Positions 311 to 57,077 of a stretch of DNA of 64,000 nucleotides are shown here, piece after piece; positions within the stretch are counted from its first letter, which is position 1; each line of letters starts with the position of its first letter. A model generated the notes under the pieces. The model worked only from the letters and a program-made list of their open reading frames with translations. It had not been told where the DNA came from and ran no database searches. Both the position numbers and the translations under genes were made by a program. This DNA is from Malacoraja senta (taxonomy: Eukaryota), in contig CM075990.1 in assembly GCA_038087875.1 (NCBI GenBank), positions 13,084,001-13,148,000 of the forward strand, given 5' to 3'.

Positions 311-344
311 TATAAGTAGCTCAAAATACTTTCTAAAAACTGTT

Positions 345-513
345 GGTAGATGAAAAATGCTGGGGAAACTCAGCAGGTGAGGCGTTCGGGTCGAGACCCG
401 AAACGTCACCTATTCCTTCTCTCCATAGATGCTGCCTCACCCGCTGAGTTTCCCCAGCATTTTTCGTCTACCTTCAATTTTTCCAGCATCTGCAGTTCTT
501 TCTTAAGCATTTC
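345..513. mobile_element. Palindromic Penelope-like (PLE) 3'-end element
   Basis: Inverted arms AAAATGCTGG..AACTCAGC / GCTGAGTT..CCAGCATTTT, flanked by the 14-bp direct repeat TTCTAAAAACTGTT (331-344, 514-527). Confidence 0.75.
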
Positions 514-660
514 TTCTAAAAACTGTTACAAATTTGTGAATGTAACTAACACAGTGGAGCAGAATAATCCAAACATTTCACAACAATTGACTTCTGACAA
601 GTGGCCACATCTCCATATTTAAGGATTGTTTAAATTTGTGTGTTGCCCACCTTAAGGTTA

Positions 661-4710: not shown

Positions 4711-5726
4711 GAACCATTTATAAAATCTAGTTGTGAGAAAGGATCTACAACCTAAAACATTAATTCTAGTTCTCTTTCCGCAGACACTCTTTCCGCTGAC
4801 CCATGTTTAACGAAAACATGTCTTGTATTACCCAAGGTTCAAAATTTAAGGCAAGATCTAATCCGGGTATTTAAAATAAACAACGGGCTGGATAGGGGAG
4901 GTACAGAATTAACAATTTCACCAAAAGAAAATTCCGAATACATGTTATGAACCAGTTTAAAGTTAGGGTGCCTTGGAGTGAAACCAGGGACTTATTCCAC
5001 ACAAAAGTTGTGGAAAGTAGGAACATATTTTCCGAAATGACTGCAGAATAGATGCTTTATGGACAGGTAATCAATGGACATGTAGCAAAGAAGTGATATA
5101 GATCCAAGTGAATGGTGGAGTAGTTTCAGAGGTGAATCTCATTCTGTTTTTGTGTTGATAATCTGGGAATCTGATCCAAGAGTGGATTATATATATTGTG
5201 TGAAAAGTTCCTTGATACGAAAGGTAATCTTAAGATTGGAGTGTATCTACGTATTCTTGTCACCCCCTCCATAAATTTTAACTGGAAGTAATATTCTGGA
5301 TTTACCTCTATGTATTGTACTCTTAATTATTCTGTACAATGGACTTCACCTCTCAAGTATATCTTTCCAAGGGTGAAATGAGTCCCGGGTCGAAATTTGA
5401 CCTCCGTTACATATGTTAAAATATGCACTAATAATTAATTATGTTGGTTGAGGTTGAACTTTGTTTCTGAAATTCTGTTCCTCTGAATATGTTACAATAC
5501 ATATTACTCCATGTTACATGTTACTGTTTGTGACGCACGACAAACTTATATCTCCTGGCTCTCCAGCCTTTCTTCATAATTCAGAATATTGTACATTAAA
5601 GAAAAGTTATGTGATCTTCCTAAAGTATTAATTTTTGTTTGGTCATATGGGTTAAAAGGGAATATTGTCCAGAAATGTGGGGAAGTTCATATTCTTCTTC
5701 AAATGGAACCACAGGACATATGAGTG

Positions 5727-6045
5727 GGAAAGAACTGCAGATGTTGGTTTAAAATCGAAGGTAGACACAAAATGCTGGAGTAACTCAGCGGGATAGGCAG
5801 TATCTCTGGAGAGAAGGAATGGGTGACGTTTCGGGTCGAGACCCTTCTTCAGTCTGATGGAGGATACCCAGTCTGAAGAAGGTTTTTGACCCGAAACGTT
5901 GCCTATTTCCTTCGCTCCATAGATGCTGCCTCACCCGCTGAGTTTCTCCAGCATTTTTGTCTACCTTCAATTTTCCAGCATCTGCAGTTCCTTCTTAAAC
6001 ATGCTGCCTGTCCCGCTGAGTTACTCCAGCATTTTGTGTCTACCA
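5727..6045. mobile_element. Palindromic PLE element with a second PLE subfamily copy nested inside
   Basis: Subfamily A arm 5727-5852, subfamily B piece ~5870-6001, subfamily A return arm ~6001-6045. Confidence 0.75.
5825..5852 (-). ncRNA. Minimal hammerhead-ribozyme core (PLE type), putative
   Basis: Minus strand reads CTGAAGA-A-GGGT-CTCG-ACCC-GAAA-CG-TC: CUGANGA box, stem II, GAAA box, loopless palindromic stem III, GUC site. Stem I is poor in this copy. Confidence 0.55.
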
Positions 6046-6121
6046 CAGGATCTATGATCTCCATTTGAATTGTGGACGGTTTCAGTACCTGACCAAAGTC
6101 AGCATCTCCAACAATACATGA

Positions 6122-7524: not shown

Positions 7525-7925
7525 AAAGTTAGTAAACAGCACCGAAACAGGCCCTTCAGCCCAACTCACCCATGTGATCAAGTGGCCTAATCAAGATAGT
7601 CCCACTTGCCTACGCCTGAGCCATAGCCCTCCAGACCTTTCCTGACCATGTACTTCAACAAGTGGCTTTCACATGTCAAAATTGTACCCACCTCTACCAC
7701 TCACTCTGGCAGCTTGTTGCATGCATGCACCACACTGTGTGAAAAAGTTGCCCCTCAGATCCTTTATAAATCTTTCCATTTTCACCTTAAAACTATGCCC
7801 TCTAGACTTCTCTATCCTGGGAAAAACACTGTGGCTATTCGCCTAATCGATGCCCCTCATAATATTATATACCTCCACATTCACCTATGCTCCAGGGATA
7901 AGGGAGTCAACCTATCCAGCCTCTG
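7525..7925 (-). mobile_element. Degenerate CR1-type 3' fragment
   Basis: GGAAACAGGCCCTTC-type terminus; similar to 27490-27960. Confidence 0.6.
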
Positions 7926-7927
7926 TT

Positions 7928-9915
7928 AATTATTTGCCTCTGTACTCCACAATTTAAGATTTGTAATAGAAAAAGTCACGTGTGGTTAAAGTGCACATTG
8001 TCCGATTTTAATAAAGGCCATTTTTATACATTTTGGTTTCACCATGTAGAAATTACAGCTGTGTTTATACATAGTCCCCCCATTTCTGGGCACCATAATG
8101 TTTGGGACACAGCAATGTCATGTAAATAAAAGTAGCGATTCAGGGACATCACCAGTTGCTGGGTTTCTTACCTGGTGACTATACATAGTCCCCCCATTTC
8201 AGGGCACCATAATGTTTGGGACACATGGCTTCACAGGTGTTTGTAATTGCTCAGATGTGTTTAATTGCCTTCTTAATGCATGTATAAGAGAGCTCTCAGC
8301 ACCTAGTCTTTCCTCCAGTCTTTCCATCACCTTTGGAAACTTTTATTGCTGTTTATCAACATGAGGACCAAAGTTATGCCAATGAAAGTCAAAGAAGCCA
8401 TTATGAGACTGAGAAACAAGAATAAAACTGTTGGAGACATCAGCCAAACCTTAGGCTTACCAAAATCAACTGTTTGGAACATCATTAAGAAGAAAGAGAA
8501 CACTGGTGAGCTTACTAATCGCAAAGGGACTGGCAGACCCAGGAAGACCTCCACAGCTGATGACAGAAGAATTCTCTCTATAATAAAGAAAAAAAAAAAA
8601 ACACCTGTCCGACAGATCAGAAACACTCTTCAGGAGTCAGGTGTGGATTTGTCAATGACCACTGTCGGCAGAAGACGTCATGAACAGAAATACAGAGGCT
8701 ACACTGCAAGATGCAAACCACTGGTGAGCTGCAAAAATAGGATGGCCAGGTTATAGTTTGCCAGGAAGTACTTAAAAGAGCAACCACAGTTCTGGAAAAA
8801 GTCTTGTGGACAGATGAGACGAAGATTAACTTATATCAGAGTGATGGCAAGAGCAAAGTATGGAGGAGAGAAGGAACTGCCCAAGATCCAAAGCATACCA
8901 CCTCATCTGTGAAACACGGTGGTGGGGGTGTTATGGCCTTGGCATGTATGGCTGCTGAAGGTACTGGCTCACTTATCTTCACTGATGATACAACTGCTGA
9001 TGGTAGCAGCATAATGAATTCTGAAGTGTATAGACACATCCTATCTGCTCAAGTTCAAACAAATGCCTCAAAACCCATTGGCCGGTGGTTCATTCTACAG
9101 CAAGACAATGAGCCCAAACATACTGCTAAATGGGTCCTTGTTCTGCATAGGAGACAGGACCCATTTATGTGAGCGGCTTCCTCACCGACCCCACTGATCC
9201 TCCAGCCCGCCCACCATTGGGTTCCCGAGGAAGCCACTCTCAGCTCGCTTCAGTTTCACACATGCCGCGGCACTGGGGTGGGGGGGTGGGGCGCTTTCAC
9301 TCCGGGTGGTCGGGAGGATGGAAGAGGGGTTGGGAGGGTAGGGACGGAGAGAGGGAGTGAGTCGACAGGTGTTGTGATATGGAATTGGCTCTGTGTGTGT
9401 GAGAACTACTCGCGGATAAGTGTTGTGTGTGTTTTGTGTTACGCCTGTGGGCCGGATCCGACTCGTGGGCCATAGGTTGCCGACCCCTGTGCTAAAGCAA
9501 CAAAGGAGTTTTCCAAAGCTAAAAAATGGTCAATTCTTGACTGGCCATTGAGCATGAAGGGGACTAGCCCCCAAAACAAGCATAAGCTAACGATGGCTGC
9601 AATACAGGCCTGGCAGAGCATCACCAGAGAAGACACCCAGCAACTGGTCATGTCCATGAATCGCAGACTTCAAGCAGTCATTGCATGCAAAGGATATGCA
9701 ACAAAATACTAAACATGACTACTTTTATTTACATGACATTGCTGTGTCCCAAACATTATGGTGACCTGAAATGGGGGGGGGGGCCTTTATTAAAATCTGA
9801 CAATGTGCACTTTAACCACATGTGATTTTTTTTAATTTTACAAATCTCAAATCTTGGAGTACAGAGGCAAATAAATAAATGATGAGTTTTTGTCCCAAAC
9901 ATTATGGAAGGCACT
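7928..9915 (+). mobile_element. Tc1 DD34E transposon copy 2 (rearranged left end, internal insertion, deletions)
   Basis: Transposase pieces 8361-8756 and 8804-9130, resuming ~9490-9712; right TIR ends ..GTCCCAAACATTATGGAAGGCACT. Confidence 0.93.
9131..9489 (-). mobile_element. hAT/Charlie-like non-autonomous element nested in Tc1
   Basis: Minus-strand end CAGGGGTCGGCAACCTATGGCCCACG..GGATCCGGCCC resembles Charlie/MER58-type termini; flanked by TGCTAAA (9124-9130, 9490-9496). Confidence 0.65.
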
Positions 9916-10072
9916 AACACCTATTCAAATACAAGCCAAAATATTAAAGCAGAAATTTGTCTAAAAGCCTAATTTTGCTTCTAGGCATCACTTCACCATG
10001 TAAAAAATGAAGGTCTCACTATATTTCTTTCAATGGGATCATATCAGACTGTAAAGCCTTTCAATAGAAGAT

Positions 10073-10683
10073 AAGACACAAAATGCTGGAGGAACTGACA
10101 GGCAGCATCTCTGGAGAGAAGGAAAGGGTCTCGACCTGAAACGTCACCCATTCCTTTTCTCCAGAGATGCGCCAATCAACTTTAATATTTTTGTATTTTA
10201 AAGACAGTGAATATTGATTATATACGAATCGTGAATCAGATTAGCCTTGCTGGGAATCCAAGAACTGTCTGGTTGGGACAAGTGAAGCGTTTTGTGTGAA
10301 TCACTTGTTGCTCTGTTGGTGTTAATTCATTTTATTCACTGCCCCTGAATAAAGGAGGTTTCTTTGAGAGGGAAGACACAAAATGCTGGAGGAACTGACA
10401 GGCAGCATCTCTGGAGAGAAGGAAAGGGTCTCGACCTGAAACGTCACCCATTCCTTTTCTCCAGAGATGCGCCAATCAACTTTAATATTTTTGTATTTTA
10501 AAGACAGTGAATATTGATTATATACGAATCGTGAATCAGATTAGCCTTGCTGGGAATCCAAGAACTGTCTGGTTGGGACAAGTGAAGCGTTTTGTGTGAA
10601 TCACTTGTTGCTCTGTTGGTGTTAATTCATTTTATTCACTGCCCCTGAATAAAGGAGGTTTCTTTGAGAGGGAAGACACAAAA
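10073..10683. repeat. Exact 300-bp tandem duplication bounded by PLE copies
   Basis: 10081-10380 is identical to 10381-10680 by line-by-line comparison. Confidence 0.95.
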
Positions 10684-11939
10684 AGCTGGAGTAACTCAGC
10701 AGGACAGGCAGCATCTCTGGAGAGAAGGAATGGGTGACGTTTCGGGTCGGGACCCTTCTTTGGGCGGGTGTTGAAAAGATAATTATTGTCACATATAAAT
10801 GCCACCACCAGTCTCACCTCAATCATGTTCACAATTCTAAGAGTTAGTAGTTTTTGCATTGTGCCGTGAACTTTGTATCAGAACAGCGCAGCATGGTGGT
10901 GCAGCTAGTAGACCCACTGCCTCACAGTTCTAGTGACCCAACTTACAGATGCTGTCTGAGTGGAGTTTAAACATTATATCTGTGACTACTCGGATGTCCC
11001 CAAAGCACTCTCATTTCCTTCCATTCCTCGTTGGTCGGTTAATTGACCGATGTAAGTTGTTCCTAGTGTAGATAAAGAAATGGTAGAATCTGTGGTGTTG
11101 ATGGGAATGAGTTAGGTTAGAATTAGTGTAAAAATGGGTGCTTGATGTTGGTCATTAACTCAATGAGCGGAAGAGCCTGTTTGTATCCCCCCCCCCCAAT
11201 GATTCTAGAATACTGAAAACATCTTTAATCAGCCTCATGAGACACAAGAGAATGAAGATGCTGGAATCTTGAGTAAAATATAAAACCGCTGGAGGAATTC
11301 AGCAGATCAGGCAGCATCAATGACCTGAAATGAACAAACCATGTTTCAGGTGGGGACCCTTCTTCACAGTCTGACGGATGGTCCCAACCCAAAGCACTGG
11401 CTGTCCATTTCTTTCAGCTGCTGACCCACTGAGTTCCTCCAGTACTTCCTTTTGCCCTTGAATTAACCACACAGAGGGCATTGTACTAAGGCACCTACAA
11501 TGTGTTCAGCACAAGAGCAATAAACGATGCACCCTAAACTATTTAGCTTTTTTTCTCTCTTACTGTACAGCCCAGAAAAGCATATTAGTACCCAGAATAA
11601 CATCAGGATGGCATTAAGAACCCTCTAGGTTTTATGATTAGAGTGCCTGTCTCATGTTAAAGTTAAAACCTAAACCACATAACTAATCGGCTGCAGACCT
11701 TCGACCCTCAAGGCAAGAAGGTGATGAAAGTATCAGTGAATGGGATATAAACATTTGTGTATCTGAAGATTGACATAAGTCCAGAATAAAGTGATACTTG
11801 TCAGGCATGTGATTTGGAGGGGGGTTCTTTTTCTTTTCAAGTTTAAAGTGTATTAACTCTTCAACTCCGGCCTACAATGTTCACCAGCCCTTTACCCCGT
11901 AATTACACTTGAGACACTATCTGGATGGGGGAGCTTGTT

Positions 11940-12402: not shown

Positions 12403-12500
12403 AATCAAGAGTGTTGTATTGTCATATGTCCCAGATAGAACAATGAAACTCTTACTTGCAGCAGCACAACAGGATATGTAAACATAGTACACTGTGAACA
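12403..12500 (-). mobile_element. Rex1/Babar-like LINE 3' terminus that seeds the minisatellite
   Basis: TCAAGAGTG..TATTGTCATATGTCCCAGATAGAACAATGAAA nearly identical to 47093-47190 and related to the tail at 44972-45060. Confidence 0.65.
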
Positions 12501-12597
12501 CAATAGTGAACGAGAAAAAAAGTTCAGTGTGTGTATATATATATATATATCCACACACACACACATACACAATAGTGAACGAGAAAAAAAGTTCAGT

Positions 12598-12634
<37 letters not shown>

Positions 12635-12829
12635 CCCACACACACACACATACACAATAGTGAACGAGAAAAAAAGTTCAGTGTGTGTATATATATATAT
12701 ATCCACACACACACACACACATACACAATAGTGAACGAGAAAAAAAAAGTTCAGTGTATGTGTATATATATATATATACCCACACACACATACACAATAG
12801 TGAACGAGAAAAAAAGTTCAGTGTATGTG

Positions 12830-12873
<44 letters not shown>

Positions 12874-12917
12874 CACACACACACACATACACAATAGTGA
12901 ACGAGAAAAAAAGTTCA

Positions 12918-12961
<44 letters not shown>

Positions 12962-13075
12962 CCACACACACACATACACAATAGTGAACGAGAAAAAAAG
13001 TTCAGTGTGTGTATATATATATATATATCCACACACACACACATACACAATAGTGAACGAGAAAAAAAGTTCAGT

Positions 13076-13112
<37 letters not shown>

Positions 13113-13311
13113 CCCACACACACACACATACACAATAGTGAACGAGAAAAAAAGTTCAGTGTGTGTATATATATATATATCCACACACACACACACACAT
13201 ACACAATAGTGAACGAGAAAAAAAAAGTTCAGTGTATGTGTATATATATATATATATATACCCACACACACATACACAATAGTGAACGAGAAAAAAAGTT
13301 CAGTGTATGTG

Positions 13312-13367
<56 letters not shown>

Positions 13368-13411
13368 CACACACACACACATACACAATAGTGAACGAGA
13401 AAAAAAGTTCA

Positions 13412-13473
<62 letters not shown>

Positions 13474-13518
13474 CCACACACACACATACACAATAGTGAA
13501 CGAGAAAAAAAGTTCAGT

Positions 13519-13563
<45 letters not shown>

Positions 13564-13605
13564 CACATACACATTAGTGAACGAGAAAAAAAGTTCAGTG
13601 TATGC

Positions 13606-13682
<77 letters not shown>

Positions 13683-13700
13683 CACACACACACACATACC
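12501..13700. repeat. Compound minisatellite, 14 units of CAATAGTGAACGAG(A)7-9GTTCAGTG-(TG/TA)n-(CA)n
   Basis: Unit starts 12501, 12570, 12655, 12726, 12795, 12892, 12979, 13048, 13133, 13204, 13277, 13386, 13491, 13572. Confidence 0.95.
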
Positions 13701-13706
13701 CACTGA

Positions 13707-13884
13707 GTGTTTAAGTAGGAACTACAGATGCTGGAAAATCGAAGGTAGACAAAAATGCTGGAGAAATTCAGCGGGTGAGGCAGCTTCTATGGAGTCTAAA
13801 AAATAGTTTCGACCCGAAACGTTGCTTATTTCCTTCGCTCCATAGATGCTGCCTCACCCGCTGAGATTCTCCAGCATTTTTGTC
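13707..13884. mobile_element. Palindromic PLE element (subfamily B)
   Basis: Inverted arms, flanked by CACATAC(C/A)CACTGA (13693-13706, 13885-13898). Confidence 0.75.
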
Positions 13885-13957
13885 CACATACACACTGACA
13901 TTTTTTAATATAACTGAACTACTATCTACCTCTTTGATGACCCTCGGATAATCCTTA

Positions 13958-15547: not shown

Positions 15548-16204
15548 TTGTTCAGTAATTTGTCTTCCTCCCGCTCTTTGTTAAGATTTGTCCAGCTTAC
15601 TTTTTGAATAATGATTTCACAATGAAATGGGCCATTGATTATAGAACAACATAGTGGCAGAATTACTCACTGATGACCTTTTAATTGGGCTGTTTTCCTT
15701 TGAACTTCACTGGTTTCTGTGTTAATCTGCTGATTACTTTGCATTAATGCTTTTCTGTTCTTTGGCACATTTGCTGCCAAGCATTTCAATAGACGTTGAA
15801 AAGAAGGCATGAGAAAACAAGGGACGCATGGCAATTATAAACCAGTATCAGCTCCTGGGCCCTCACTTGGAAAGGATTCATTAAAATGGAGAATTAAGAG
15901 TGCCACAAACTGCAGAGAAGCAAATCACCAGGTTATCTATCGCTTGTTGGTCAGCAGATCTGTAGTCATATTTTCAAAGTAGATGTAGAGCCTGACTGAT
16001 CTCAGTAGGAAAGTGGAATCCAGGTGAACTCAGGTACATCAGCTTACACCTTTTACCTCCACAGATGCTGCTTGATCCGTTGAGTTCTTCCATTGTTCTG
16101 TTCTAATGTCTCAGGTTACAGAATCTATGTTTTCTTTGGAGGATAGATTTTGTCCATCAGGAGATATTTATGCTGGCTGCTAAAATCATCCCTTTTGTGA
16201 GCAT

Positions 16205-16357
16205 GTAGACAAAAGTGCTGGAGAAACTCAGTGGGTGCAGCAGCATCTACGGAGCGAAGGAAATAGGCAACGTTTCGGATGCTGCTGCACCCGCTGAGTT
16301 TCTCCAGCACTTTTGTCTACCTTCGATTTTCCAGCATCTGCAGTTCCTTCTTAAACA
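16205..16357. mobile_element. Palindromic PLE element (subfamily B)
   Basis: Near-perfect inverted arms; 14-bp TSD CCTTTTGTGAGCAT (16191-16204, 16358-16371). Confidence 0.8.
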
Positions 16358-17144
16358 CCTTTTGTGAGCATCCTCAGGATGAAGAAATTCTGTGCACTTC
16401 TGAGAAACATGGCATTCACTATTGGGAATTCATTATGATCCATAATGAATGGTGGACCAAAAACATTGCTCTATCGATGGGAGCCCCTGCCAATAGTTCT
16501 CCAACCTGAAAACATTATTAGTTTCTCTTTTCGCAGATGCTGCCCGACTTTCCAACATTTTCTGCTTTTACTGCACAACCAACCTTGTAATGACCTCCAT
16601 GTTTGATGCTGGAAGTCCTTGGTCCGATTTTGTGATTGGTGTGATTGCACCTGGGTAAAATTAGTCCTGGATAACATCGTACCCAAAAGACAAGCAACAC
16701 ATGATTCAATAGATTTCATGTTACCCCAGAATAATATTTTAATCAAAATAAGGTGTATTTTCTGTTTTGCAATAATAATTAAAAAAGCTCTATTGTGTAC
16801 ACATTCCCGAGAGACCGTGGCAATTCAAATAAACACTGGAAGGAAATAAATAAGACTGGAAAATTAATAGTACAACCTGGATCACCACAGAATGGTAGAT
16901 TGCCATTGACAGCAATGCTGCTCAACATTCAGTAGTTCAGTGCATGTCATCTTATAACATTCTTATTTTAACTAGGACTCGGTGCGGAATGAGGCCATGT
17001 CCCAATACTCTAATAAAACAGCATGTGAATTGGAGGATTTGCATTGTAAGGTGGTCACTGTGTCAAATAATAGAACCCTTCAGGATCTGAGATGTTCACA
17101 GCTAACGTGGGCATCGCAGTGATGGAGGAACAGCAACGGAGGTT

Positions 17145-19340: not shown

Positions 19341-19806
19341 GTCTTGGTATAATAGCTGTAACCAATCTTTAATCTTACATTGAAATCCGGTTGTAGTTCC
19401 AGAGGCAACATACCATTTGCGATCCTTGTTGCCTGCAGTACCTATACAATAACTTTCAGTAGTTTTTATACAAAAACAACAGTCTCTGAGCATCAAATCT
19501 TACCATTTAAAATTACTCTGCTTTTCTGTTTTTCTCTATCAAACTGATTAATTTTGCACTTTTCCTAGATATGTTCCATCTGCTATGATATTACCTGTTG
19601 ACATCATAATATCTGTTATATTATGATACGTTTTGTCTACAACCTGCTGAAGCTTTCTCCATCTTCCTCACAGAATATTCTGTCTGAAGATGGGTCTCAA
19701 CCCGAAATGTCACCCATTCCTTCTCTCCAGAGATGCTGCCTGTCCAGCTGAGGTACTCCAGCTTTTTGTGTCTATCTTTGGTTTAAACCAGCATCTGCAG
19801 TTCCTT

Positions 19807-19973
19807 TCTAGGGGTCAAGGAAAGAGCGTTCACGTCGCGGCCCTGTTTCCACCAATCTTTCCACCACCACGCACAAGAAGCACAAGACAGACACCACTGT
19901 ATGCAGATGCCGAGACGTGTGTTCAGCTCTGGCTGAACAACTTCTATTCTTGTGTGTGGACTCAATAAGATGA
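19807..19973 (+). mobile_element. 167-bp insertion (probable 5'-truncated non-LTR retroelement of unknown clade) inside a PLE end
   Basis: Flanked by AGTTCCTT (19799-19806, 19974-19981); ends AATAAGATGA. Confidence 0.5.
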
Positions 19974-21085
19974 AGTTCCTTCCTACACATTCTGTCACCT
20001 TTCTTTATTTCAGCATTAAACTTGATTATGTTACACATGGTCCAGGCCATTAATTTAGATTCTGAACAGAGTCAAGTGTGTTTAATTGTCATACTCAATA
20101 GGAAAGGAACAATTAAATCCTTACTTGCTGCAATTCTACAAGCTCATATATGCAGCAGCACTATAACACCACAAATAAATATACAATATTCAACGATACA
20201 ATAAATTATAAGTCACACTGGGAAACCAGACCATAATTCTACAAAGTGAAGTAAGTAATGCAACTTACACAAAGTCCATGTAGATCACTGTGTAGGAAGG
20301 AATTGCAGATGTTGGTTTAAACTGAAGATAGACACAAAAAGCTGGAGTAACTCAGCGGGACAGGCAGCACCTCTGGAGAAAAGGAATAGGTGTCGTTTCG
20401 GGTCGAGTCCCTCCTTCTTCAAACTAATGACATCAATGGCCGACAGTTTAACCATCATTATCGTTATAAAATGAAGGCTACATGTACTTTTAGAGTTAGA
20501 CAGACTGACTCACTGCATCCGAATTAAGATCTCTTGACTATGATACTCCACATCAAAACCCAATCAAGACCTCAGGATTGAGTTAAAAACTGTTGCCTCT
20601 CCTATCCATGCTCATAATTCATCCATTAAAGTCTCTTTCTACTAAATTAATGCTGGTGTCAAACCAGAAATGTGCATTAAAATGTGAATTAGAACTGTAT
20701 CACCATAATTTTTCATCGGTAGCCTGTACTGAATTGAGTTTCCTTCCTAACTTTCTGGGTATTTATGTTACCTCTGTAAATTGCCGACAAATGTTTATTC
20801 ATATTAATGCTGGTGTATAAATAAAAAACACAGTTACACAGGAAAAGTAGGCAAGCAAACAATGAGAATACGATGATAAATACACATGCTACTTTTCTGC
20901 AGGGTATAAATTGAGTGGGATAGATGCAAGTGTATGAAGTGAAGATTGTTAACATCCTTATAAGTCCATTTGTCTCCGAGAAGATTTAATAAAGCTAGAA
21001 TGTTTCCGTTGATCAAGTGCTGATGAATTTGATGTTGTCAAACGTTTGAATACAAAGCCCTTTACTTAAGTAAACCATTAAATGA

Positions 21086-21475: not shown

Positions 21476-22579
21476 ATTTATCATTCTTGATAAAACTTGC
21501 CCTGCACATTAAAATTCTCCTTTAAATTTGCATTTTCATCTTAACGCTGTGCCCTCTCATCTTTGACATTTTTATCCTGGGAAAAAAGGTTACGGCTGTC
21601 TATCCTATCTATACCTCTCATAATTTGATATACTTCAATCAGGTTTCCGATACTCCAGTAAAACCCTGAACTGATGCAGCCCCAGGCACAGACAAGACCT
21701 TGGAGAAATATCAGGTAGATGTTCTCACATTTGATCTGGGAATGTCCATCTTTATCAGGATCAGTAGCAGAGGCATAATGAATCGTCCAGTTTGATGAAT
21801 GTCCCATTCATGCTGCTAAATGTCAGGAAAATAACACCCTGGTGCCTATTTTGGACATTTTCTCCTGTTGAATGCAAAGGTATTTTTTGTATTTATTATC
21901 TCCAATGTTCATAAGTTCTAGGAGCAGAATTAAGCCATTCGGCCCATCGTCTACTCCGCCATTCAATCATGGCCGATCTATCTTTCCCTCTCAATCCCAT
22001 TCTCATGCCTTCTCCAATCCCCTCACACTCACCACTAATCTGCTGCTTTTCCACGTCAAGCTACTGTTTAACGAGATGGAGCCCAAGGCTTGAAATAGAG
22101 ATTTCAATGAGTGAAACGCATTTAGTGGATGACAGCTTGGGTGCAAAGGATAGATACCGCAAGGCATTAATAAGATCAGAATAATCTCATCCATCCGGTT
22201 CAATCACATAACAGGGTGACAGAGGAACTTACCCGATCTCTTGCCCCAAACCCCCATCTAATCCACAATTTGACCAGGATTTCATTTGCAACTCTGAGAC
22301 ATTGCATGGCGGGATTTTCATGGGTTGGGATGGGAGACTAGATATATTATGCTGCACAATTTATCACAATATGCACTGCAAGCTAAATGTGTTAAAACAT
22401 CTCCCTCCTGCACACAAGTAAAACAACTGGAAGCAGGGCTTGCTGTAGTGCAGCCAAAAGGTAAAGAAATACTAATGGAGACACAAGGAACTGCAGATGC
22501 TGGTTTATTTAAAAAAAAGACACAACGTGCTGGAGTAACAGCGAGTCAAGCAGCATGGAGAATGCTGTAGGATAGACCT

Positions 22580-23040
22580 ACAGATGATGGTTTACACCGA
22601 AGATAGAGACAAAATGCTGGAGTAACTCAGCGGGTCAGGCATCTCTGCAGAGAAAGAATGGGTGACGTTTCGGGTCGAGACCCTTCTTCAGACAGAGTCA
22701 GGGGAGAGGGAAACTGGAATGGAAAAGTACAAAGGGAATGTGAATTGTGAAAACAACAGATTAAAGCAGACGATGATCAAGAAAATGCAGAATGGTTCAT
22801 TGTTGGCCGAGGGGAAGGTGACGGAAGCATACAATAAGTAAAATTAATCAGGGGAACAGTGAAATTAATTGGAGAACTAGGTCGGGGAGGGACGGAAAGA
22901 GAGGCAAAGCAAGGGTTACTTGAAATTAGAGAAATCAATATTCATACTGTTTGGTTGTAAGCTGCCCAAGTGCAATATGAGGTGCTGTTCCTCCAATTGG
23001 CGTATGGCCTGACCTGTTAAGTTACTCCAGCACTTTGTCT
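22580..23040 (-). mobile_element. 5'-truncated Penelope-like element: ORF C-terminus, 3'UTR, hammerhead core and short inverted end piece
   Basis: 22916-23008 minus strand = AIRQLEEQHLILHLGSLQPNSMNIDFSNFK*, resembling the PLE GIY-YIG C-terminal R-x-x-E..W/LI..L.TL.P.GLN motif. Core at 22664-22691; inverted fragment 23010-23040. Confidence 0.75.
22664..22691 (-). ncRNA. Minimal hammerhead-ribozyme core (PLE type), putative
   Basis: GT-CTGAAGA-A-GGGTCTCGACCC-GAAA-CG-TC-AC: intact boxes and a short GU/AC stem I. Confidence 0.6.
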
Positions 23041-24008
23041 TAAAAAAAGAAAGAAATACTAAACTCGACCAGCAGGTGGCAGATTCTTACAGCCTTCAAC
23101 ACTTCGCCAGCATCAGATTGACAGCATCAGATACAGTGCTGGTACAATACAGCTTAACACTCACAATTGATTATCCCGTCAGCTAACTTTGCAGAGCATA
23201 CACATTCCACTCCAGCACCAATTTATCTTCCTTCAAATGTTGTCGTATATTTTAACTTCCTCTGTCAGGTCTCAAACTTAGCTGAAAAGATGAGGCCTCA
23301 CCCAGGAAAGGTGTCCTTCACACCAGAGTTACACTTTGTATAGAAACGGGTACAATCAGGGCTGCTGGACATATGCAGAGTTTCACCAATGGTTTCATTA
23401 GTCTCCACGTAATATTCAACAAATTCCATTAACAGTGGTAGTCATCGTTTATCCATCATCAGCACCAAACTAAGATAGACACAAAATGCTGGAGTAACTC
23501 AGCGGGACAGGCAGCATCTCTGGAGAGAAGGAATGGGTGCTGTTTCGGGTCAAGACCCTTGTTAGTATGAAGAAGCTTCGGTTCAAACCAGCATCTACAG
23601 TTCCTTCTTACACATTTCATCAACACCAACCCCTCCATCCCATTCCCAACCTCCACCCAAAACATAACACAATCTCCATCACTGGACTAAAAATATTACA
23701 TTTGGTTTGATTTATGTCTATTTTTACATGTAACGAGATACAGCGATAAGCTGCTAGTCAAATTATACCATAGGAGTACAATCAAGCCATATAGAAGTAT
23801 AACAGAATATAGTGCTGCAGCATGATAGCATTAGTTACAGAGAAAGTGCATATTACCAAAAAAAAAGTGCAAGGGCTGCAGTGAGGTAGGTTGGGAGATC
23901 GGGAATACAACCTTAGTTTATGAGAGGACTGTTTGGTAATATTAGGCAATCTAACAGGTCTAAAGAACTGAATGGATGTGGGTGCAGAACATGCGGATTT
24001 ATTGGCTT

Positions 24009-24551: not shown

Positions 24552-24697
24552 CTGCTGTATTCTACCAAAATTCCCTGGATTCTGGAAAAGTGCCAGTGTA
24601 GCTAAGCATCTGTCATTTGGGAAATGATGGAATGCGTTCTTCAAGGTATAAAGGATAAAAAAATCAAAAGGCAATCAAGCAGAGTGAATGTGGTTGG

Positions 24698-24993
24698 AGA
24701 TAGACTCTAAATGCTGGAGTAACTCAGCGGGGCAGGAAGCATCTCTGGAGAGAGGGCATGGGTGACGTTTCGGGTCGAGACCCTTCTTCAGACCCGTAAC
24801 ATCACCCATTCCTTCTCTCCGGAGATGCTGCCTGTCCCGCTGAGTTACTCCAGCATTGATCAGCCATGATCATATTGAATGGCGGTGCAGGCTCGAAGGG
24901 CCGAATGGCCTATTTATTCCTGCACCTATTTTCTATGTTTCTATTTTCTGTCTATCTTCGGTGTAAACCAGCATCTGCAGTTCCTTCCTACAC
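24698..24993. mobile_element. Palindromic PLE element with nested CR1 3' tip (~24858-24943)
   Basis: Intact core at 24764-24791 (minus); right arm split by a CR1 3'UTR with TTCTATGTTTCTA tail. Confidence 0.75.
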
Positions 24994-25134
24994 AAGAGTT
25001 TTATGAAAGGGAAATAGTATTTGAGAAATATGATAGAGATCTTTGAGATGTAACAAACAGTGGATAATGAAGAACAGCAATGCATTTGAATTTCCAGGAG
25101 ATGTTTGATAGAGGACCACATTATAAAGTCACTG

Positions 25135-25165
<31 letters not shown>

Positions 25166-25834
25166 GCATTGCATAGGGTAGGAGTAAGGCATAGATAAAG
25201 AATTTGCTAACTAACAAAGAGTTAGGAAAAATGAGCCACTTTTGGATTGACGAAAGTTGTGCTGAAGCAAAGCAAGAATTTCATTGTCCTATCCAGGACA
25301 CATGACATTAAACTCTCTTGAATCTTGACAATCAGTAACTACAATGGGTACCACAGGGATCAAGGGCAGGGACCTCAACATGTTTAATATATGACTGGAA
25401 TGCAGGGAGCTTGTGTAGTGCAGCCAAATAACACAAAGGTGAGAGACACAAAACGCTGGAGTAACTCAGCGGGCAGTTCCCTCCAACACGAAGGTGAGTT
25501 GGCAAATTGTGAAGTGGTGACAAAGAGCATGCAAAGGGATAAGAAGGTTTCGACCCGAAACGTTGCCTGTTTCCTTCGCTCCATAGATGCTTCCTCACCC
25601 GCTGAGTTTCTCAAACATTTTTGTCTACCTGCAAAGGGATAGACAGTTTCAGCGAGTCTCAAGAATTTGGCAGAAGTTCAGGAAGAGCCACTTTCTCACA
25701 CCACCAGGTTCTTCCACTGGCACAATCCAAATCCTACCTTGCAATTGGACACTACAATTGACACTTCTTGCAATACCACAGACTTGTAATCTAATTTTTT
25801 TTTTTGCACTAAAGACTGTCTTTTTCTTAAACTG

Positions 25835-27445: not shown

Positions 27446-28148
27446 AAATACAAAGTGCTAGAGGAACTCAGCAGGTCAGGCACCATAGTCAGTGTGGAAA
27501 CATGCCCTTCAGCCCAATATGCCCACACCAGCCAACATGTCCCAGCTACACCAGTCCCACCTACCTGCGTTTGGTCCATATCCCTCCAAACGTGTCCTAT
27601 CCATTTACCTGTCTGTTTCTAAAACGTTGGGATAGTCCCAGCCTCAACTACCTCCTCTGGCAGCTTGTTCCACGCACCCAGCACCCTTTGCGTGAAAAAG
27701 TTACCCCTCGGATTCCTTCTGAAGGGTTTCGGCCCGAAACGTTGCCTATTTCCTTCGCTCCATAGATGCTACCGCACCCGCTGAGTTTCTCCAGCACTTT
27801 TGTCTACCTTTTAAATCTTTTCCCTTTCACCTTGAACCTATATCCTCTGGTCCTCGATTCCCCTACTCTGGGCAAGGGATTCTGTGCATCTACCCGATCT
27901 ATTCCTCTCATGATTTTAAACACCTCTGTAAGATCATCCCTCATCCTCCTGCACTCCAAATGACAATATCTTTCCCATAACATGGTGCCCGGAACTGAAC
28001 GCAATACTCTAAATATCTGGGGAGGGAATGGACAGGTGATGTTTTGGGCCGGGACACATCTTTGGACAATTCCTCCCCAGATGCTGCTTGGTCTGCTGAG
28101 TTCCTCCAGCACTTTGTGTTTTGCTCAACATTCAAGCATCTGCAGTTT
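27446..28148. mobile_element. Triple nest: PLE palindrome containing a CR1 fragment (~27483-28013, minus) containing a PLE piece (~27719-27806)
   Basis: Arms GTGCTAGAGGAACTCAGCAGGTCAGGCA and ATCTGGGGAGGGAATGGACAGG rejoin into one consensus when the CR1 is removed. Confidence 0.7.
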
Positions 28149-30299: not shown

Positions 30300-32421
30300 A
30301 CTTTAATTTTTAGTTTTGACATTTGTATTTATTGTAGAACTGCCTGAAAAGGACTCCCTTCTAATTAACGAGTAAATAATATTGAAACCATACTGGGCCA
30401 TTCAGCATAGAAAATACATGTCTACATATTCAATAAAATAGCAGACATTGGACTGCCATATAAATGCGTTAAACATTTGCCAGCTGCCCCTGCTGATAAT
30501 TTATAGACTTCTATATTGGTAGCAGCAGCAAGAATTGCCTGAGCAGTAATGGCAAACACAAATCCATAAGCATTGAATTAAAACTGGGATGAGAAACTCT
30601 AGCCTCTGGCTCCTAGGGACTGAGGGGAGATGTTGATGAAACACTCGTCAGCAGATGTTAGTCCTGCAATTAAATAAAAGGAAAGTACAGTTTCAAATCA
30701 TTTCTGAAGATTTAAAACATTATACTTTATTTTATATCAATACCTTAAAGGTACAGCCTTAAAAATAAAAATGCTTTAGCCAATGTTGCTCTTTGGGGCA
30801 AAAAAGGATGCAGAAAATGGTTCTGTAGAAGCTACAATAATTACAGCAATATTCCTGATTATTCTTGTATTGTCATGTTTGAGACAACTATTCTAATCGG
30901 TAACATGAATAACTTATTGAAGAAAGATGCATCAATAGAGATTCACTCGGCACTGATTAGCATGGAGCAATAAAAACACACTATTTAAAAAAAAGCAAAA
31001 ACAAGCAAAAATTATTTGTTACTGGATGCAAAGATTCTACCCAGTGACTGCCTTCTGATTTCAAGACACAAGGGAATGCAGATGCTGGTTTACAAAATAG
31101 ACAAATATATTTACTCCAGCACTTTCTGTCTCTTTCCGAGTTCAAGTCCTACTTCAAGTGCTGAGTCTATAATTTTAGGCCAGGCATTCGCTGCAAGTAC
31201 TCTTATCTAAATACATTTTATCTACATGATTTCATTTTGGGAAATGGGAAAGAGTACTTTCTTTTATTTGCTGAACTTTCAAGTGTTTACTCCGATTCCA
31301 TTGTTTTACTGAAGATAGACACAAAATGCTGGAGTAACCCAGCGGAACAGGCAGCATCTCTGGAGAGAAGGAATGGGTGACGTTTCAGGTCGAGACCCTC
31401 CAGACTAGTAAAACCATTGTTTTACTCTTCACAACATTCGTGCAACGACATTGATAATCTGCCCAGTTTAATCCCCTTCTTTTGGGGCCAAGTTTCTAGT
31501 CATTCTCTCACACAATCCCTTCTGGACCTTCCATCACCCATTTGGATTTATTAACCCAAACCCTCACTGGCTGGATGGATGGCATTTTCATTTGCATTGA
31601 TGCGCATTAACCCAGCGTGCAAAATGTGGACTTGGATGAAACAGGACTTGGATGAAGAGTCCGTGAGGAGTCCATGACAACAATGTAGCTGGGGGTACGG
31701 GAGGAAAAACTGAATTTCTGATCTAAACAATTTCTACTATAATGGAGGTGGTTAATTCTAAGTTAAGAGTTTTTGAACTGTGTGAGGATCTAAAATACAT
31801 TTTGTTTAACTTTTTGATTCCCCTTGTAAGATGACCTCCAGATCTGTGGGGTGGGGGTCAGAGCGAGGTTATTGTTCTAGTCCCAGCAGACACACCCCTC
31901 AGAGAAAGGGAAAGACCAGTGCCCTGCCATTTTGGGAAGTCTGACAGTAACTGTTCTGTGAGATTGAAATACAGCAGAGTCAGGTGTGAATCTAATCCTG
32001 CACGTGTTAGCATCAGAGACCCCATGAGAACGAACACAAGCTGTGTACTGTGGTGACTTTTGCTACTTTGATGGGCTGTGAGCATCATAGTAATTGAGCT
32101 CATTTACAGTAACTGCCAACACTGGTCCACAAGCATGTTGGTTGCAGATTGCAAGAGACAAATTCACGTCTTCAGTCTGTCAATAACTTAAGAGTAAATT
32201 GCTGCTTCAAACCTATTGGGATACATGTGCAACCTGTCATACAAAATTCCCACATTTTAAAAGAAAAAGGCAAGGCAAAATTGGAAAACAAGACCCCAGT
32301 AGTTCAACGTTCCACGAGTTAAGGCATTAGCACATCCCATGTCAGTCCTTCCGATAATCTTGAGATTAGATTCTAAAGATGCTCAGGGCTGATGTGCAAC
32401 TGAGGCATTTCTATTTTCTCT
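30300..32421 (-). other. MICU1: Putative MICU1 3'UTR
   Basis: Downstream of the stop; candidate AATAAA signals on the minus strand at 30726-30731 and 30328-30333 with T-rich downstream tracts. The end used cannot be determined from sequence. Confidence 0.45.
31311..31406 (-). mobile_element. PLE 3'-end fragment within the putative MICU1 3'UTR
   Basis: 13-bp TSD CCATTGTTTTACT (31298-31310, 31414-31426). Confidence 0.75.
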
Positions 32422-38225: not shown

Positions 38226-41200
38226 AATATCCTGGCGGGGAGATTTGCAAAGGCTACTGGGGAGACTTTAAACTAGAATGGTTGGGGGAAGGGACTCAAA
38301 TAGAGAAAGCTAGTAGACAATGTGGGAGGCAGGAGGCAGAGAAGGGAAGCACTCGGACCCAAAATGTAGGGTAGAAAGAAGAAAAAGATAATAAACAGAG
38401 AATAAGTGGTGGTGGGTTTCTTAAATGTGTATATTTTAATGCTAGGAGCATTGTAAGAAAGGTGGATGAGCTTAGAGCCTGGATTGACACCTGGAAGTAT
38501 GATGTTGTGGCGATCAGTGAAACATGGTTGCAGGAGGGCTGTGATTGGAAACTAAATATTCCAGGATTTCATTGCTTCAGGGGTGATAGAATTAGAGGGG
38601 CAAGAGGTGGGGGTGTTGCATTGCTTGTCAAGGAAGATATTACAGCAGTGCTTTGGCAGGATAGATTAGAGGGCTCGTCTAGGGAGGCTATTTGGGTGGA
38701 ACTGAGAAATGGGAAAGGTGTAGCAACACTTATAGGGGTGTATTATAGACCGCCTAATGGGGAGCGAGAATTGGAAGAGCAAATATGTAAGGAGATAGCA
38801 GATATTAGTAGTAAGCACAAGGTAGTGATTGTGGGAGATTTCAATTTTCCACACATAGACTGGGAAACACATTCTGTAAAAGGGCTGGATGGTTTGGAGT
38901 TTGTAAAATGTGTGCAGGATAGTTTTTTGCAGCAATACATAGAGGTACCTACTAGAGAAGGGGCAGTGCTGGACCTCCTGTTAGGAAATGAGACAGGGCA
39001 GGTGGCGGAGGTATGCGTTGGGGAGCACTTCGGGTCCAGTGATCACAATACCATTAGTTTCAATATAATTATGGAGAGGGTCAGAACTGGACCTAGGGTT
39101 GAGATTTTTGATTGGAGAAAGGCTAACTTTGAAGAGATGCGAAAGGATTTAAAAGGAGTGAATTGGGACGTTGTTTTATGGGAAGGATGTAGAAGAGAAA
39201 TGGAGGACATTTAAAGGTACAGAATCTTTATGTCCCTGTTCAGTTGAAAGGAAATAGTAAAAATTGGAAAGAGCCATGGTTTTCAAGGGAAATTGGACAC
39301 TTGGTTCGAAAAAAGAGAGAGATCTACAATAAGTATAGGCAGCATGGAGTACATGAGGTGCTTGAGGAGTATAAAGAATGTAAAAAGAATATTAAGAAAT
39401 AAATTAGAAAAGCTAAAAGAAGATATGAGGTTGCTTTGGCAAGTAAGGTGAAAGTAAATCCAAAGGGTTGCTACAGCTATATTAATAGCAAAAGGATAAC
39501 AAGGAATAAAATTGGTCCATTAGAGAGTCAGAGTGGACAGCTATCTGCAGAGCCAAAAGAGATGGGGGAGATATTGAACAAGTTCTTTTCTTCGGTATTC
39601 ACCAAGGAGAAGGATATTGAATTATGTGAGGTAAGGGAAACAAGCAGAGTAGCAATGGAAACTATGAGATTCAAAGAAGAGGTGTGGACACTTTTGAAAA
39701 ATATGAAAACGGATAAGTCTCCAGGTCCTGACAGGATATTCCCTCAGACATTAAGGGAAGTTAGTGTAGAAATAGCAGGGGCTATGACAGAAATATTTCA
39801 AATGTCATTAGAAACGGGAATAGTGCCGAAGGATTGGCATACTGCGCATGTTGTTCCGTTGTTTAAAAAGGGTTCTAAGAGTAAACCTAGCAATTATAGA
39901 CCAGTTAGTTTGAGGTCAGTGGTGGGCAAATTAATGGAAAGGATACTTAGCGATAATATATATAAGCATCTGGATAAGCAGGGTCTGATTAGGAACAGTC
40001 AACATGTATTTGTGCCTGGAAGGTCATGTTTGACTAATCTTCTTGAATTTTTCGAAGAGGTTACTAGGGAAATTGATGAGGGTAAAGCAGTGGATGTTGT
40101 CTATATGGACTTCAGTAAGGCCTTTGACAAGGTTCCTCATGGAAGGTTGGTTAAGAAGATTCAATTGTTAGGTATTAATGGTGGAGTAGCAAGATGGATT
40201 CAACAGTGGCTGAATGGGAGATGCCAGAGAGTAATGGTGGATGGCTGTTTGTCAGGTTGGAGGCCGGTGACTAGTGGGTTGCCTCGGGGGTCTGTGTTGG
40301 GTCAACTGTTGTTTGTCATGTACATCAATGATCTGGATGATGGTGTGGAAATTTGGATTAGTAAGTATGCAGATGATACTAAGATAGGTGGTGTTGTGGA
40401 TAATGAAGTAGATTTTCAAAGTCTACAGAGAGATTTAGGCCATTTGGAAGAGTGGGTTGAAAGATGGCAGATGGAGTTTAATGCTGATAAATGTGAGGTG
40501 CTACATCTTGGCAGGACAAATCAAAATAGGACATACATGGTAAATGGTAGCGAATTGAGGAATGCAGTTGAACAGAGGGATCTAGGAATAACTGTGCATA
40601 GTTCCCTGAAGGTGGAATCTCATGTAGATAGGGTGGTAAAGAAAGCTTTTGGTGGGCTGGCCTTTATAAATCAGAGCATTGAATATAGAAGTTGGTATGT
40701 AATGTTAAAATTGTACAAGGCATTGGTGAGGCCAATTCTGGAGTATGGAGTACAATTTTGGTCGCATAATTATAGGAACGATGTCAACAAAATAGAGAGA
40801 GTACAGAGGAGATTTACTAGAATGTTGCCTGGGTTTCAGCAACTAAGTTACAGAGTAAGGTTGAACAAGTTAGGTCTTTATTCTTTGGAGCGCAGAAGGT
40901 TAAGGGGGGACTTGATAGAGGTCTTTAAAATGATGAGCGGGTTAGACAGAGTTGACGTGGATAAGCTTTTCCCATTGAAAGTAGGGAAGATTCAAACAAG
41001 GGGACATGACTTGAGAATTAAGGGACAGAAGTTTAGGGGTAACATTAGGGGGAACTTCTTTACTCAGAGAGTGGTAGCTGTGTGGAATGAGCTTCCAGTG
41101 GAAGTGGTGGAGGCAGGTTCGATTTTATCCTTTAAAAATAGATTGGATGGGTATATGGACGGGAAAGGAATGGAGGGTTATGGTCTGAGTGCAGGTAGAT

Positions 41201-41317
41201 GGGACTAGGGGGAAGAAAGAAGAAAGAAGGGGAAAACAAAAAGTGTTCGGCACGGACTTGAAGGGCCGAGATGGCCTGTTTCCGTGCTGTAATGGTTATA
41301 TGGTTATATGGTTATAT
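38226..41317 (+). mobile_element. CR1 LINE, 5'-truncated: ORF1 tip plus disrupted ORF2 (APE endonuclease ~38420-39214, RT 39436-41208)
   Basis: ISETW, YRPP, GDFN, SDH endonuclease motifs; DFSKAFD, KYADDTK RT motifs; (ATGGTTAT)3 tail; frameshift and stops between the domains. Confidence 0.96.
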
Positions 41318-42473: not shown

Positions 42474-44371
42474 CTGCAGAGAGAGAGAAAAAATGAATTG
42501 AAAAGAGTGAGTTCCATTGTCTATCATGGGTAAAAAAACATTTGATCCATCACACCCGCAATATTTCTAGTATGATAATTTTATCAAGAGTATTCCATCT
42601 TTCTCTTCTGGTTTAAAGATAATTATTTAATTTCCAACTCTGCTGTCACCTGTAAATACCGATGCTATTCAATGGAATTCAATTTCAATTCAGCTCCCTT
42701 GAAAATAATTCAATTAACCAAATAAAAGACACAAAGTCCTGGAGTAACTCAGTGGGACAGACAAGGGAGGTCGAGGGGTGGCCTTCTAGAGGTTTATGAA
42801 ATAATGAGGGGCAAAGATAAGCTGGATGTTCACAGTCTTTTCCCCCAGGGTAGGGCAATGTAACATTTGAGGCATAGGTTTAGGATTAGCGGAGGAAGAC
42901 TTAAAGAGAGGTTGAGGAGCAAATTTCTCCACACAAAGATTGTTGGATATGTGCAACCTAACTGCTAGAGACAATGGTGGAGGGGGTAGAAATACAATTT
43001 ATAAAACACGTTTGGATAGGTTCATCAACAAGAAAGATTTATGACATATGGACCAAGCGCAGGCACACGAAGGTCGGTAACACGAAGTGCAGGTTGGTAA
43101 CTTGGTTGATATGGATGAGTTGAACCGAGGGGCCCGTTTCTGTGCTGTATGAATATAGAGCATTATTGGAATGCAGTCCAAAACTGTTATAAATTCAGAT
43201 CTACAAGATTCCCCCAACAAACAAGTAAATTCAATTGACCCTAGTCTTAAAATGACAGAATTCCATCACTGTAAAATAATATTTTGATTAATATAATGTA
43301 ATATTATTACCCTTCTCCCAACATATTACTTGATATTTACACAGGGAATTCATCGCGATGAAATTATAGAAATTTGCCGGAAATGTAATATTGGTATTTA
43401 AAATGATTTATTGCTTTTTGTCCAAATTTTTCATTTTACCTTCCTGCCTCTGGTTTAATCTAGATAATTGTTTGAAACAGGATGCTGTGAATCTCTAATG
43501 AGGCAATGGAGAGGTGGGTTCTGTGCATCAATATATTCTGAAGAAACTTCCACAGCAATTATGTAAAATGGGACGACTATAAAAACGTTCCAAATTGACA
43601 AATTACATTCTGGCAATGAAGAGTCCGTACTGAAAGCAATAATGCCCTTTTACTATTGAATAATTCTCCATTACACTACCAGAATAGGCAATCACTCTTC
43701 CCCAACTCATTTTTTTTAGATCAATAATATCAGGAGCATAATCTGAACATCCATGCAGCCCAAATTTGTCGTCTTTCTCTTTCTCCATCTTTATTGTGAA
43801 ATGGAGAAACCACACAGAACCAAGTTTCAATACACAGCAAAAAACTGCAGTCAAAATAGCACGTCACACGGTCGTCTCGAAACTAGGACAATAGGTTGTT
43901 TTATGTAATGACTCATAATCAGCTTTGCATTAAAATGTTTTAACAAAAGAGTGGAAGTCACAGGCAGAGACAAATAAATCATTTTAGAAGCACCGGATAG
44001 CAAGAAAAAGCAATGGCGATGTGCAACAGTTACTGCTGTCCCTCTGCTCCAATAACCTGTGTTTGGGTCCTAGTCTCAGATACTGTCTGCATGGAGTTTG
44101 CACATTCTCCTTGTGATCACATGGGTTTCCCTGGAGTTCTTCAGTTTCCTCCTAGGTGGGTGGCAGGAAAATCCAGGTGGAGATGAAGGGCATGGGTGAG
44201 GATGGAGATTACAGAGAAAATATTGTGAATAGGGGTGATGGTGCAGCTCTGTGAGATAGCATTGATGGGTCAAATAGCCTTTTACTTCATAGTAAAATAG
44301 TCGTTCAAATGTAGAAAAATATAATATGAAAATATAAAGGTTTCAGTTAATCTATCAAGAGTTTAAGATTG

Positions 44372-44466
44372 AAGGTAGACACAAAATGCTGGAGTAACTC
44401 AGTGGGACAGGCAGCATCTCTGGAGAGAAGGAATGGGTGACATTTTGGGTCAGGACCCTTCTTCAG
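44372..44466 (-). mobile_element. PLE 3'-end fragment
   Basis: 15-bp TSD AAGAGTTTAAGATTG (44357-44371, 44484-44498). Confidence 0.75.
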
Positions 44467-44971
44467 TTTAAGATTAATTAATTAAGAGTTTAAGATTGTA
44501 TGATTGAGAAAAGGGAGCTTTCTGTAATGTAGAATTCCACAAATTCATATCAATGAATCAATAACCTTCTTTCTTCAATGAAAATAGGCGTTCAAACTAA
44601 AGTAGGTAACAGTGAAAGTGCTTCTCAGATATTTAAGTACAGCATCAATTGGATAATGAAATGCCTTGTGTAATCACTGTTCTTCTTGCAACTTGAGACT
44701 GTTATTATTCCATATGCTGTACCGTTAATTCTCTTGACAGATCAAAATACACACACATCAATTTTAGCCCATAAAATTGAAATGGTATAAGCTGACAAAA
44801 TTTACAAAGGCCTGCATTTCATCAAGTGTAGGGAACAATGCTGGCATATAATAGATACTAAATCATGCTGTATCATTAGGTCCACTGCAGCTTTATTGTT
44901 GTTCAAAGATGGTTAAGATTACAACTGCTATTTGTCTGAGTCTGATGGAGACTACCTACTTTTATGGGCAG

Positions 44972-56911: not shown

Positions 56912-57077
56912 TGTGTAGGAAGGAACTGCACAGTTTTGTTTAAACCGTAGACACAAAATGCTGGAGTAACTCAGCAGGACAGGCAGCATCTCTGAAGACA
57001 GGTCTCGACCCAAAACATCACCCATTCCTTCTCTCCAGAGATGCTGCCTATCCTGCTAAGTTTTGTGTCTATCTACA
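56912..57077. mobile_element. Palindromic PLE element
   Basis: Inverted arms; GACTC(G/A)GTA flanking repeat. Confidence 0.7.

Follow-up and report, generated by a model that had tools for sequence, protein, structure and literature searches.

Palindromic stubs of a Penelope-like retrotransposon that may form by priming from both target strands

The short palindromes found in the window, meaning the whole 64-kb stretch of DNA analyzed here, consist of a unit of ~132 nt that is almost certainly the 3' end (pLTR) of a Penelope-like retrotransposon (PLE). We lean, with some reservation, toward the view that they are heavily 5'-truncated PLE insertions, in which the two ends left by a staggered cut act as primers, at two reverse transcriptase (RT) start sites, and the resulting cDNAs join. 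The evidence base is this one 64-kb window.

Results

The copy at 331-527 opens with a 14-bp target-site duplication (TSD) at 331-344 on the plus strand. An inverted, tail-less arm follows at 345-399 on the minus strand, running from pLTR positions ~97 to 59 and, past a ~29-nt gap, into a remnant that ends in hammerhead helix II. That helix is quasi-palindromic and forms the turn-around point (388-399), where the arms overlap by exactly 5 nt. The sense arm (395-509, plus strand) has the long 3' end, of which 472-509 are an unpaired 38-nt tail, and 4 nt of filler (510-513) separate it from the right TSD (514-527, plus strand, 14 bp). Folding of the insert (345-513) gives a long hairpin whose 3' part stays unpaired (-84.7 kcal/mol, z = -11.8). 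The copy lacks the CUGA box and thus holds no whole ribozyme.

An arm profile built from 20 arms of the window gave 54 arm hits there and none on the reversed window. The hits fall into 36 loci, 16 two-armed and 20 single. The earlier note had put the density at roughly one copy per 2 to 3 kb; the 36 loci together give one per 1.8 kb, and the two-armed loci one per 4 kb. Fifteen two-armed loci are independent, as those at 10065 and 10368 belong to one 300-bp tandem duplication, and all 15 carry their arms head to head. That duplication (10073-10735; 2.2 copies, 97% alike) repeats a small palindrome together with its flank. At least two young subfamilies, ~80% alike, are present along with older ones. 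The region 19682-20420 has two arms with tails, oriented tail to tail and 482 nt apart, which were scored as two singles; the 19682/20289 pair is the window's longest inverted repeat within 600 nt (125 nt, 87%), and its arms are probably two independent insertions. At 27448-28148, an old palindrome has been split by a later repeat fragment, inside which lies a young single arm (27721-27810); comparison of that copy with the paralogous empty host repeat at 7687-7803 revealed no TSD.

Arm lengths had been noted to differ, and they do, but the 3' termini are constrained: of the 54 arm hits, 28 terminate within model columns 85-106 and 18 within columns 119-133 (46 together), leaving 8 that end elsewhere. 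The two 3' ends are separated by the PLE tail, whose length is 37 or 39 nt depending on the subfamily. Each of the 13 scorable palindromes pairs one tail arm with one tail-less arm (p ~1e-4 if the ends were independent); 10065 and 33897 were left out of this scoring for a truncated arm. Moreover, the short, tail-less end is joined directly to the TSD in three single-arm copies and thus behaves as a priming site. Single tail-less arms with TSDs lie at 25530-25641 (plus strand, 12 bp), 31298-31426 (minus strand, 13 bp) and 44357-44498 (minus strand, 15 bp). The last two were among five copies described earlier as palindromes, a description that holds for three of the five, while these two consist of a single arm plus 7 to 17 nt of filler. 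Both fillers derive from the copy's own TSD. The 7-nt filler at 31298 is the reverse complement of the TSD 3' end, and at 31402-31426 this inverted copy ends exactly on the TSD boundary; at 44461-44498 the filler is direct and repeats part of the TSD. Filler derived from the TSD is as in end-joining repair, and its copying from the TSD fits 3' overhangs equal in length to the TSD.

At their 5' side, 29 of the 54 arm hits start at model columns 1-9. The profile model itself begins there, so upstream sequences were compared for a shared extension. Upstream sequence is common only to 2810 and 22567 (score 37, null 99th percentile 22), and 34891 appears extended upstream by composition alone. The 5' stop is less certain for subfamily A and the older subfamilies, because there is no long reference for them. 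When the palindromes were read by hand, one arm stopped at columns 1-9, just 5' of the hammerhead core, in 12 of the 15 independent ones, the exceptions being 331 (centre in helix II), 16191 and 22567. Thus, the turn-around points do vary from copy to copy, as the earlier note held, but one arm mostly stops at the same place. Hammerhead cleavage was considered as the source of the template 5' end and was rejected, as cleavage is predicted at columns 30-35 and not one of the 54 arm hits begins there. No shared spliced exon was found upstream of the 5' stop among the 29 arms. One might guess at a 3' splice site there from the pyrimidine-rich upstream tract, but CAG is kept in one of three long copies.

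Direct repeats flank the five named copies where they had been reported: 331/514 (14 bp), 13693/13885 (14 bp, 1 mismatch), 16191/16358 (14 bp), 31298/31414 (13 bp) and 44357/44484 (15 bp). Among 2926 random interval pairs taken as the null, exact matches of at least 12 bp occurred in 0.31% and one-mismatch matches of at least 13 bp in 0.38%. Seven of the 32 element intervals tested reach these thresholds, namely, the five named copies, 23456/23617 and 25530/25630; the other 25 fall below them, such that most loci have no detectable TSD. Two weaker pairs, read by hand, adjoin both termini at 5708/6042 (15 bp, 2 mismatches) and 56898/57074 (14 bp, 3 mismatches). The nine TSD lengths are 14, 15, 14, 14, 13, 12, 13, 15 and 14 bp, a band of 12 to 15 bp in which two of the nine are weak. 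The TSDs had been called variable and 13 to 15 bp long; long they are, but the band is too narrow for free variation. No target motif around the nine TSDs is evident by eye. For the 25530 copy, comparison with a paralogue in the window gives weak protein-level support for the TSD.

The two arms of a palindrome often reach different depths. The tail arm stops at position 46 and the tail-less arm reaches position 1 in the palindrome at 13693-13898 (14-bp TSD), and the corresponding limits are 42 and 2-3 at 56898-57087 (degenerate 14-bp TSD). At 16191-16371 (14-bp TSD), the tail-less arm runs from 95 to 22 and the tail arm from 53 to 132. Overall, the tail-less arm reaches further 5' in seven of nine asymmetric junctions (p = 0.18, not significant), and the tail arm does so in two (10065 and 22567). 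Junction overlaps, read by hand at 10 loci with five degenerate centres left out, are 5, 4, 4, 3, 3, 3, 2, 2, 1 and 1 nt, with a mean of 2.8 and a null mean of 0.6. The centres at 331, 5721, 23470 and 33897 lie at self-complementary words. No asymmetric junction is common to two independent loci of one subfamily; five loci are nearly symmetric at columns 1-9, and a junction word recurs in two subfamilies (24694 and 53932). Private variants common to both arms and absent from the other arms of the 54 occur at 331 (two) and 16191 (one). For 5 of 12 pairs, one arm or both have the partner as nearest neighbour (rank 1); ranks go to 35 in old copies, and nearest-neighbour pairing is confined to young copies. 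The unshared asymmetric junctions and the private arm variants favor, but do not prove, the earlier proposal that each palindrome was built anew at insertion, and the mirror arm probably forms at that time.

Some copies have been modified. Internal arm deletions are visible at 331 and 23470, and the palindrome at 23456-23629 (13-bp TSD, 1 mismatch) has a deletion in its tail arm. At 24694-24994, the tail arm is split by a later 85-nt insertion, and no TSD was found. The right arm of the subfamily-B palindrome at 5708-6056 (degenerate 15-bp TSD) encloses a sense arm of subfamily A (5870-6001); this inner arm is not flanked by a separate TSD, as though homology with the target copy had served to complete its 5' end.

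The connection to a PLE coding region comes from the longest copy, at 22567-23008 on the minus strand, which holds a GIY-YIG remnant, a pyrimidine-rich stretch, a hammerhead core and a pLTR end with tail. Upstream in this copy lie the ~220-nt pyrimidine-rich stretch and then 30 codons (23008-22919) with their stop (22918-22916), and an inverted tail-less arm sits at its 5' end (23007-23040, plus strand). The 30-residue peptide has 10 protein matches at E <=0.001. Starting from one of these, we reached 15 longer proteins, among which those of whale shark and zebra shark ranked best. The remnant is 60% identical to residues 422-451 of P0011, the C-terminus of a shark RT/GIY-YIG protein (pairwise E 2e-12). 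P0011 itself has Pfam hits to GIY-YIG and RVT_1 and a visible Cys-rich linker. The 30-aa remnant has no Pfam hit and is the sole ORF remnant of a PLE within the window, where no full-length partial-tandem copy with an intact ORF was found. Judged from its relatives, the element is endonuclease bearing and probably Neptune-like, a label that draws on the P0011 linker and on the definition in excerpts of PMC8557442, as the window's own copy stops short of that region. The same homologues point to a cartilaginous fish as the host. The last 20 residues of P0012, a predicted PLE protein of zebra shark, resemble a translation of the hammerhead region of the window's unit, which suggests that a pLTR of this type follows the ORF in that element. 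P0001, P0005 and P0007 (GPCR, VKOR and LINE fragment) are predicted proteins with this PLE C-terminal remnant fused on, and these fusions are probably gene-prediction artefacts.

A minimal hammerhead descriptor matches five copies and nothing in 100 shuffles. The predicted cores share with those in excerpts of PMC4209133 (Cervera and de la Pena 2014) the CUGANGA core, an extra base before helix II, a G-C closing pair and palindromic positions 15.2-16.2, although the focal copy at 331 is without the CUGA box; that paper describes minimal type I hammerheads in metazoan PLEs, either single or close together on opposite strands. Rfam gave no hits at the gathering threshold. Helix II is 81% paired, with covariation not above that of shuffles, and the sense monomer has no stable fold (z = -0.8 and +1.1). 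The PLE origin put forward earlier is borne out by the linked GIY-YIG C-terminal remnant, the minimal hammerhead cores, the one-sided tail and the TSDs of 12 to 15 bp. Pattern scans for further copies found none in viral contigs, metagenomes or GTDB genomes. Shortening the pattern brought up 72 metagenome loci; their similarity to the unit never extended past the seed (best 18-27 nt), and they were dropped as chance. A search of sequencing runs gave 24 runs among the matches listed, one with half or more of the query words; runs with a small share of the words carry no weight as evidence here.

The window contains other repeats. A minisatellite of ~70-nt units occupies 12498-13680; its TA runs are variable, it includes a higher-order duplication of 478 bp, and the 13693 palindrome lies at its edge. 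A LINE at 38375-41205, which we take to be CR1-like, has long open reading frames for an endonuclease (279 aa) and an RT (601 aa). Remnants of Tc1-type transposases lie at 1382-2440, 8307-9169 and 51417-51650. No host domain was found in the 129 ORFs scanned of the 140 listed with at least 75 aa.

Discussion

The architecture of these insertions is already published, and the copies in the window add short stubs with very regular ends. Excerpts of Arkhipova et al. 2013 (PMC3846280) describe an inverted pLTR, a 31-bp tail, junction palindromes, head-to-head copies and, in rotifer, TSDs of 8 to 10 bp. Those of Craig et al. 2021 (PMC8557442) give a tail of 30 to 40 bp, often at one end only, and call the origin of tandem and inverted PLE structures unresolved. 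Endonuclease-bearing (EN+) PLE insertions in these two sources thus resemble those in the window in having a 5'-truncated inverted copy head to head, a tail at one end, junction palindromes, long TSDs and a hammerhead in the pLTR. They differ in that the rotifer TSDs are 8 to 10 bp and those here 12 to 15 bp, and in that nearly all copies here retain no more than the final ~130 nt and the 5' stop recurs. A search, with most subscription journals, Repbase and Dfam outside its scope, found no published twin-priming model for PLEs and no description of this family, which may well be catalogued already. Excerpts of a killifish Neptune paper (PMC12602865) contain no TSD or inversion terms.

How a palindrome might be assembled can be set against work in vitro. 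According to excerpts of Frangieh et al. 2024 (PMC11167929), the PLE protein of green anole Poseidon cuts and extends both strands, and RT starts at two sites flanking the tail, with no start-site difference reported between strands. The protein is predicted to be a dimer, and hammerhead cleavage is neither needed nor sets the template end. Poseidon therefore resembles what we propose here in its two RT start sites flanking the tail and in its use of both target strands; it belongs to another clade by proxy, as the Cys-rich linker of P0011 points to Neptune, and the nine TSDs here show no clear target motif. The excerpts of that paper deal neither with inverted insertions nor with TSD length.

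The pLTR end behind the GIY-YIG C-terminus, the two 3' ends, their occurrence as one each per palindrome, and the TSD band are observed, and we infer the steps that follow. The endonuclease would cut both target strands ~12-15 nt apart. One 3' end would then prime reverse transcription at the outer start site to give the tail arm, while the other would prime at the inner start site to give the tail-less arm, both probably on one RNA in a variant of twin priming. Neither cDNA would extend beyond ~130 nt, with synthesis often halting immediately 5' of the hammerhead core, and the two would be joined through 1 to 5 nt of microhomology or through self-complementary words in the template. Priming by one strand only would leave a single arm and repair filler. 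The outer RT would have to displace the inner cDNA, and we propose that the tail arm is often shorter for that reason. Strict pairing of a tail with a tail-less arm would need coupling, most simply on one RNA: excerpts of PMC11167929 report no strand difference, which alone would also permit tail/tail and short/short pairs. Shared arm variants could alternatively arise by gene conversion between arms.

Twin priming by L1 generates arms that cover mostly different parts of the RNA. Here, unlike in L1, both arms copy one part of the RNA, and thus a palindrome forms. In L1, both overhangs prime on one RNA and leave an inverted segment inside the TSD (Ostertag and Kazazian 2001, as described in excerpts of PMC9148063); the second priming site is variable there and fixed here.

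An alternative that we rate as less likely, but the most serious of those considered, starts from the same PLE stubs. Fold-back self-priming, with either an antisense template or the cDNA as substrate, would create the mirror arm, and resolution of the hairpin by the endonuclease would leave a tail on one side (excerpts of PMC3846280 and PMC8557442). Such a process would account for the head-to-head orientation at 15 of 15 loci, the variants shared between arms, the centres at self-complementary words and the single tail per insertion, and the snap-back-like filler at 31298 shows that synthesis of this kind occurs at these sites. Fold-back from a tail-primed cDNA, however, needs extra steps where the tail-less arm reaches further 5', as at seven of the nine asymmetric junctions, and results in vitro link the tail with the pair of RT start sites and not with resolution (excerpts of PMC11167929). 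The related idea in the earlier note, self-priming on the PLE 3' end, predicts arms tail to tail or a tail arm that always extends further 5'. It fits poorly because every independent locus is head to head and the tail-less arm is usually the one that extends further.

Less likely again, and in our judgment improbable, is a short nonautonomous RNA, itself palindromic and always centred immediately 5' of the hammerhead core, that would be retrotransposed whole, with the centres diversifying later through one-sided microhomology deletions. An arm end at columns 1-9 in 12 of 15 palindromes, the five nearly symmetric loci, the junction word common to 24694 and 53932, and the internal arm deletions at 331 and 23470 are what one would expect of such an RNA. 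The tail-less end, however, is joined to the target in single-arm copies with TSDs, and 22567 bears a similar inverted arm on an ORF-bearing stub. Moreover, the youngest-looking copies (331 and 16191, with perfect TSDs) already differ in their centres.

Two further explanations carry little weight. A type I minimal hammerhead in a PLE-derived unit of ~130 nt recalls a non-LTR retrozyme whose monomers spread by way of circular RNA, and such elements are reported from a chondrichthyan in excerpts of bioRxiv 10.64898/2026.07.22.740005, but the definition given there requires head-to-tail tandems with a ribozyme in every unit. None of the 26 TRF rows of the window is an array of that kind, the 300-bp repeat at 10073 includes flanks, and no arm hit of the 54 starts at the predicted cleavage site (columns 30-35); we consider this origin very improbable. 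A DNA-transposon MITE with terminal inverted repeats is the least credible of all: the copies are short, abundant and hairpin forming and share the window with Tc1 transposase remnants, but their inverted repeat is not terminal, one arm having a 37- to 39-nt overhang, their TSDs are 12 to 15 bp instead of a fixed 2 or 8 bp, 20 of the 36 loci have a single arm, and in one copy the sequence runs on into the end of a PLE ORF. The earlier note was thus right to set MITEs aside, on the strength of asymmetric termini with a one-sided tail, the TSD lengths and the link to a PLE ORF.

Returning to priming from both strands, the inverted-repeat-plus-tail structure of all EN+ PLEs might reflect obligate coupled double priming by a dimeric protein, with a stagger of 12 to 15 nt, RT sites ~37 nt apart on one RNA and a usable 5' boundary just before the hammerhead core. 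We offer this generalization tentatively and think it rather doubtful as a whole. If it is true, short copies in shark and ray genomes would be numerous enough to read the mechanism statistically. For annotation, these hairpins belong under PLE stubs and not under MITEs, a correction of modest value since the architecture is known. The mechanistic value is larger, as the one-tail rule, the 12- to 15-bp TSD band and the recurrent 5' stop are predictions that can be tested in vitro (with a system such as that of PMC11167929) or genome-wide. Finally, hairpins of 100 to 300 bp at such density could yield double-stranded RNA if they are transcribed.
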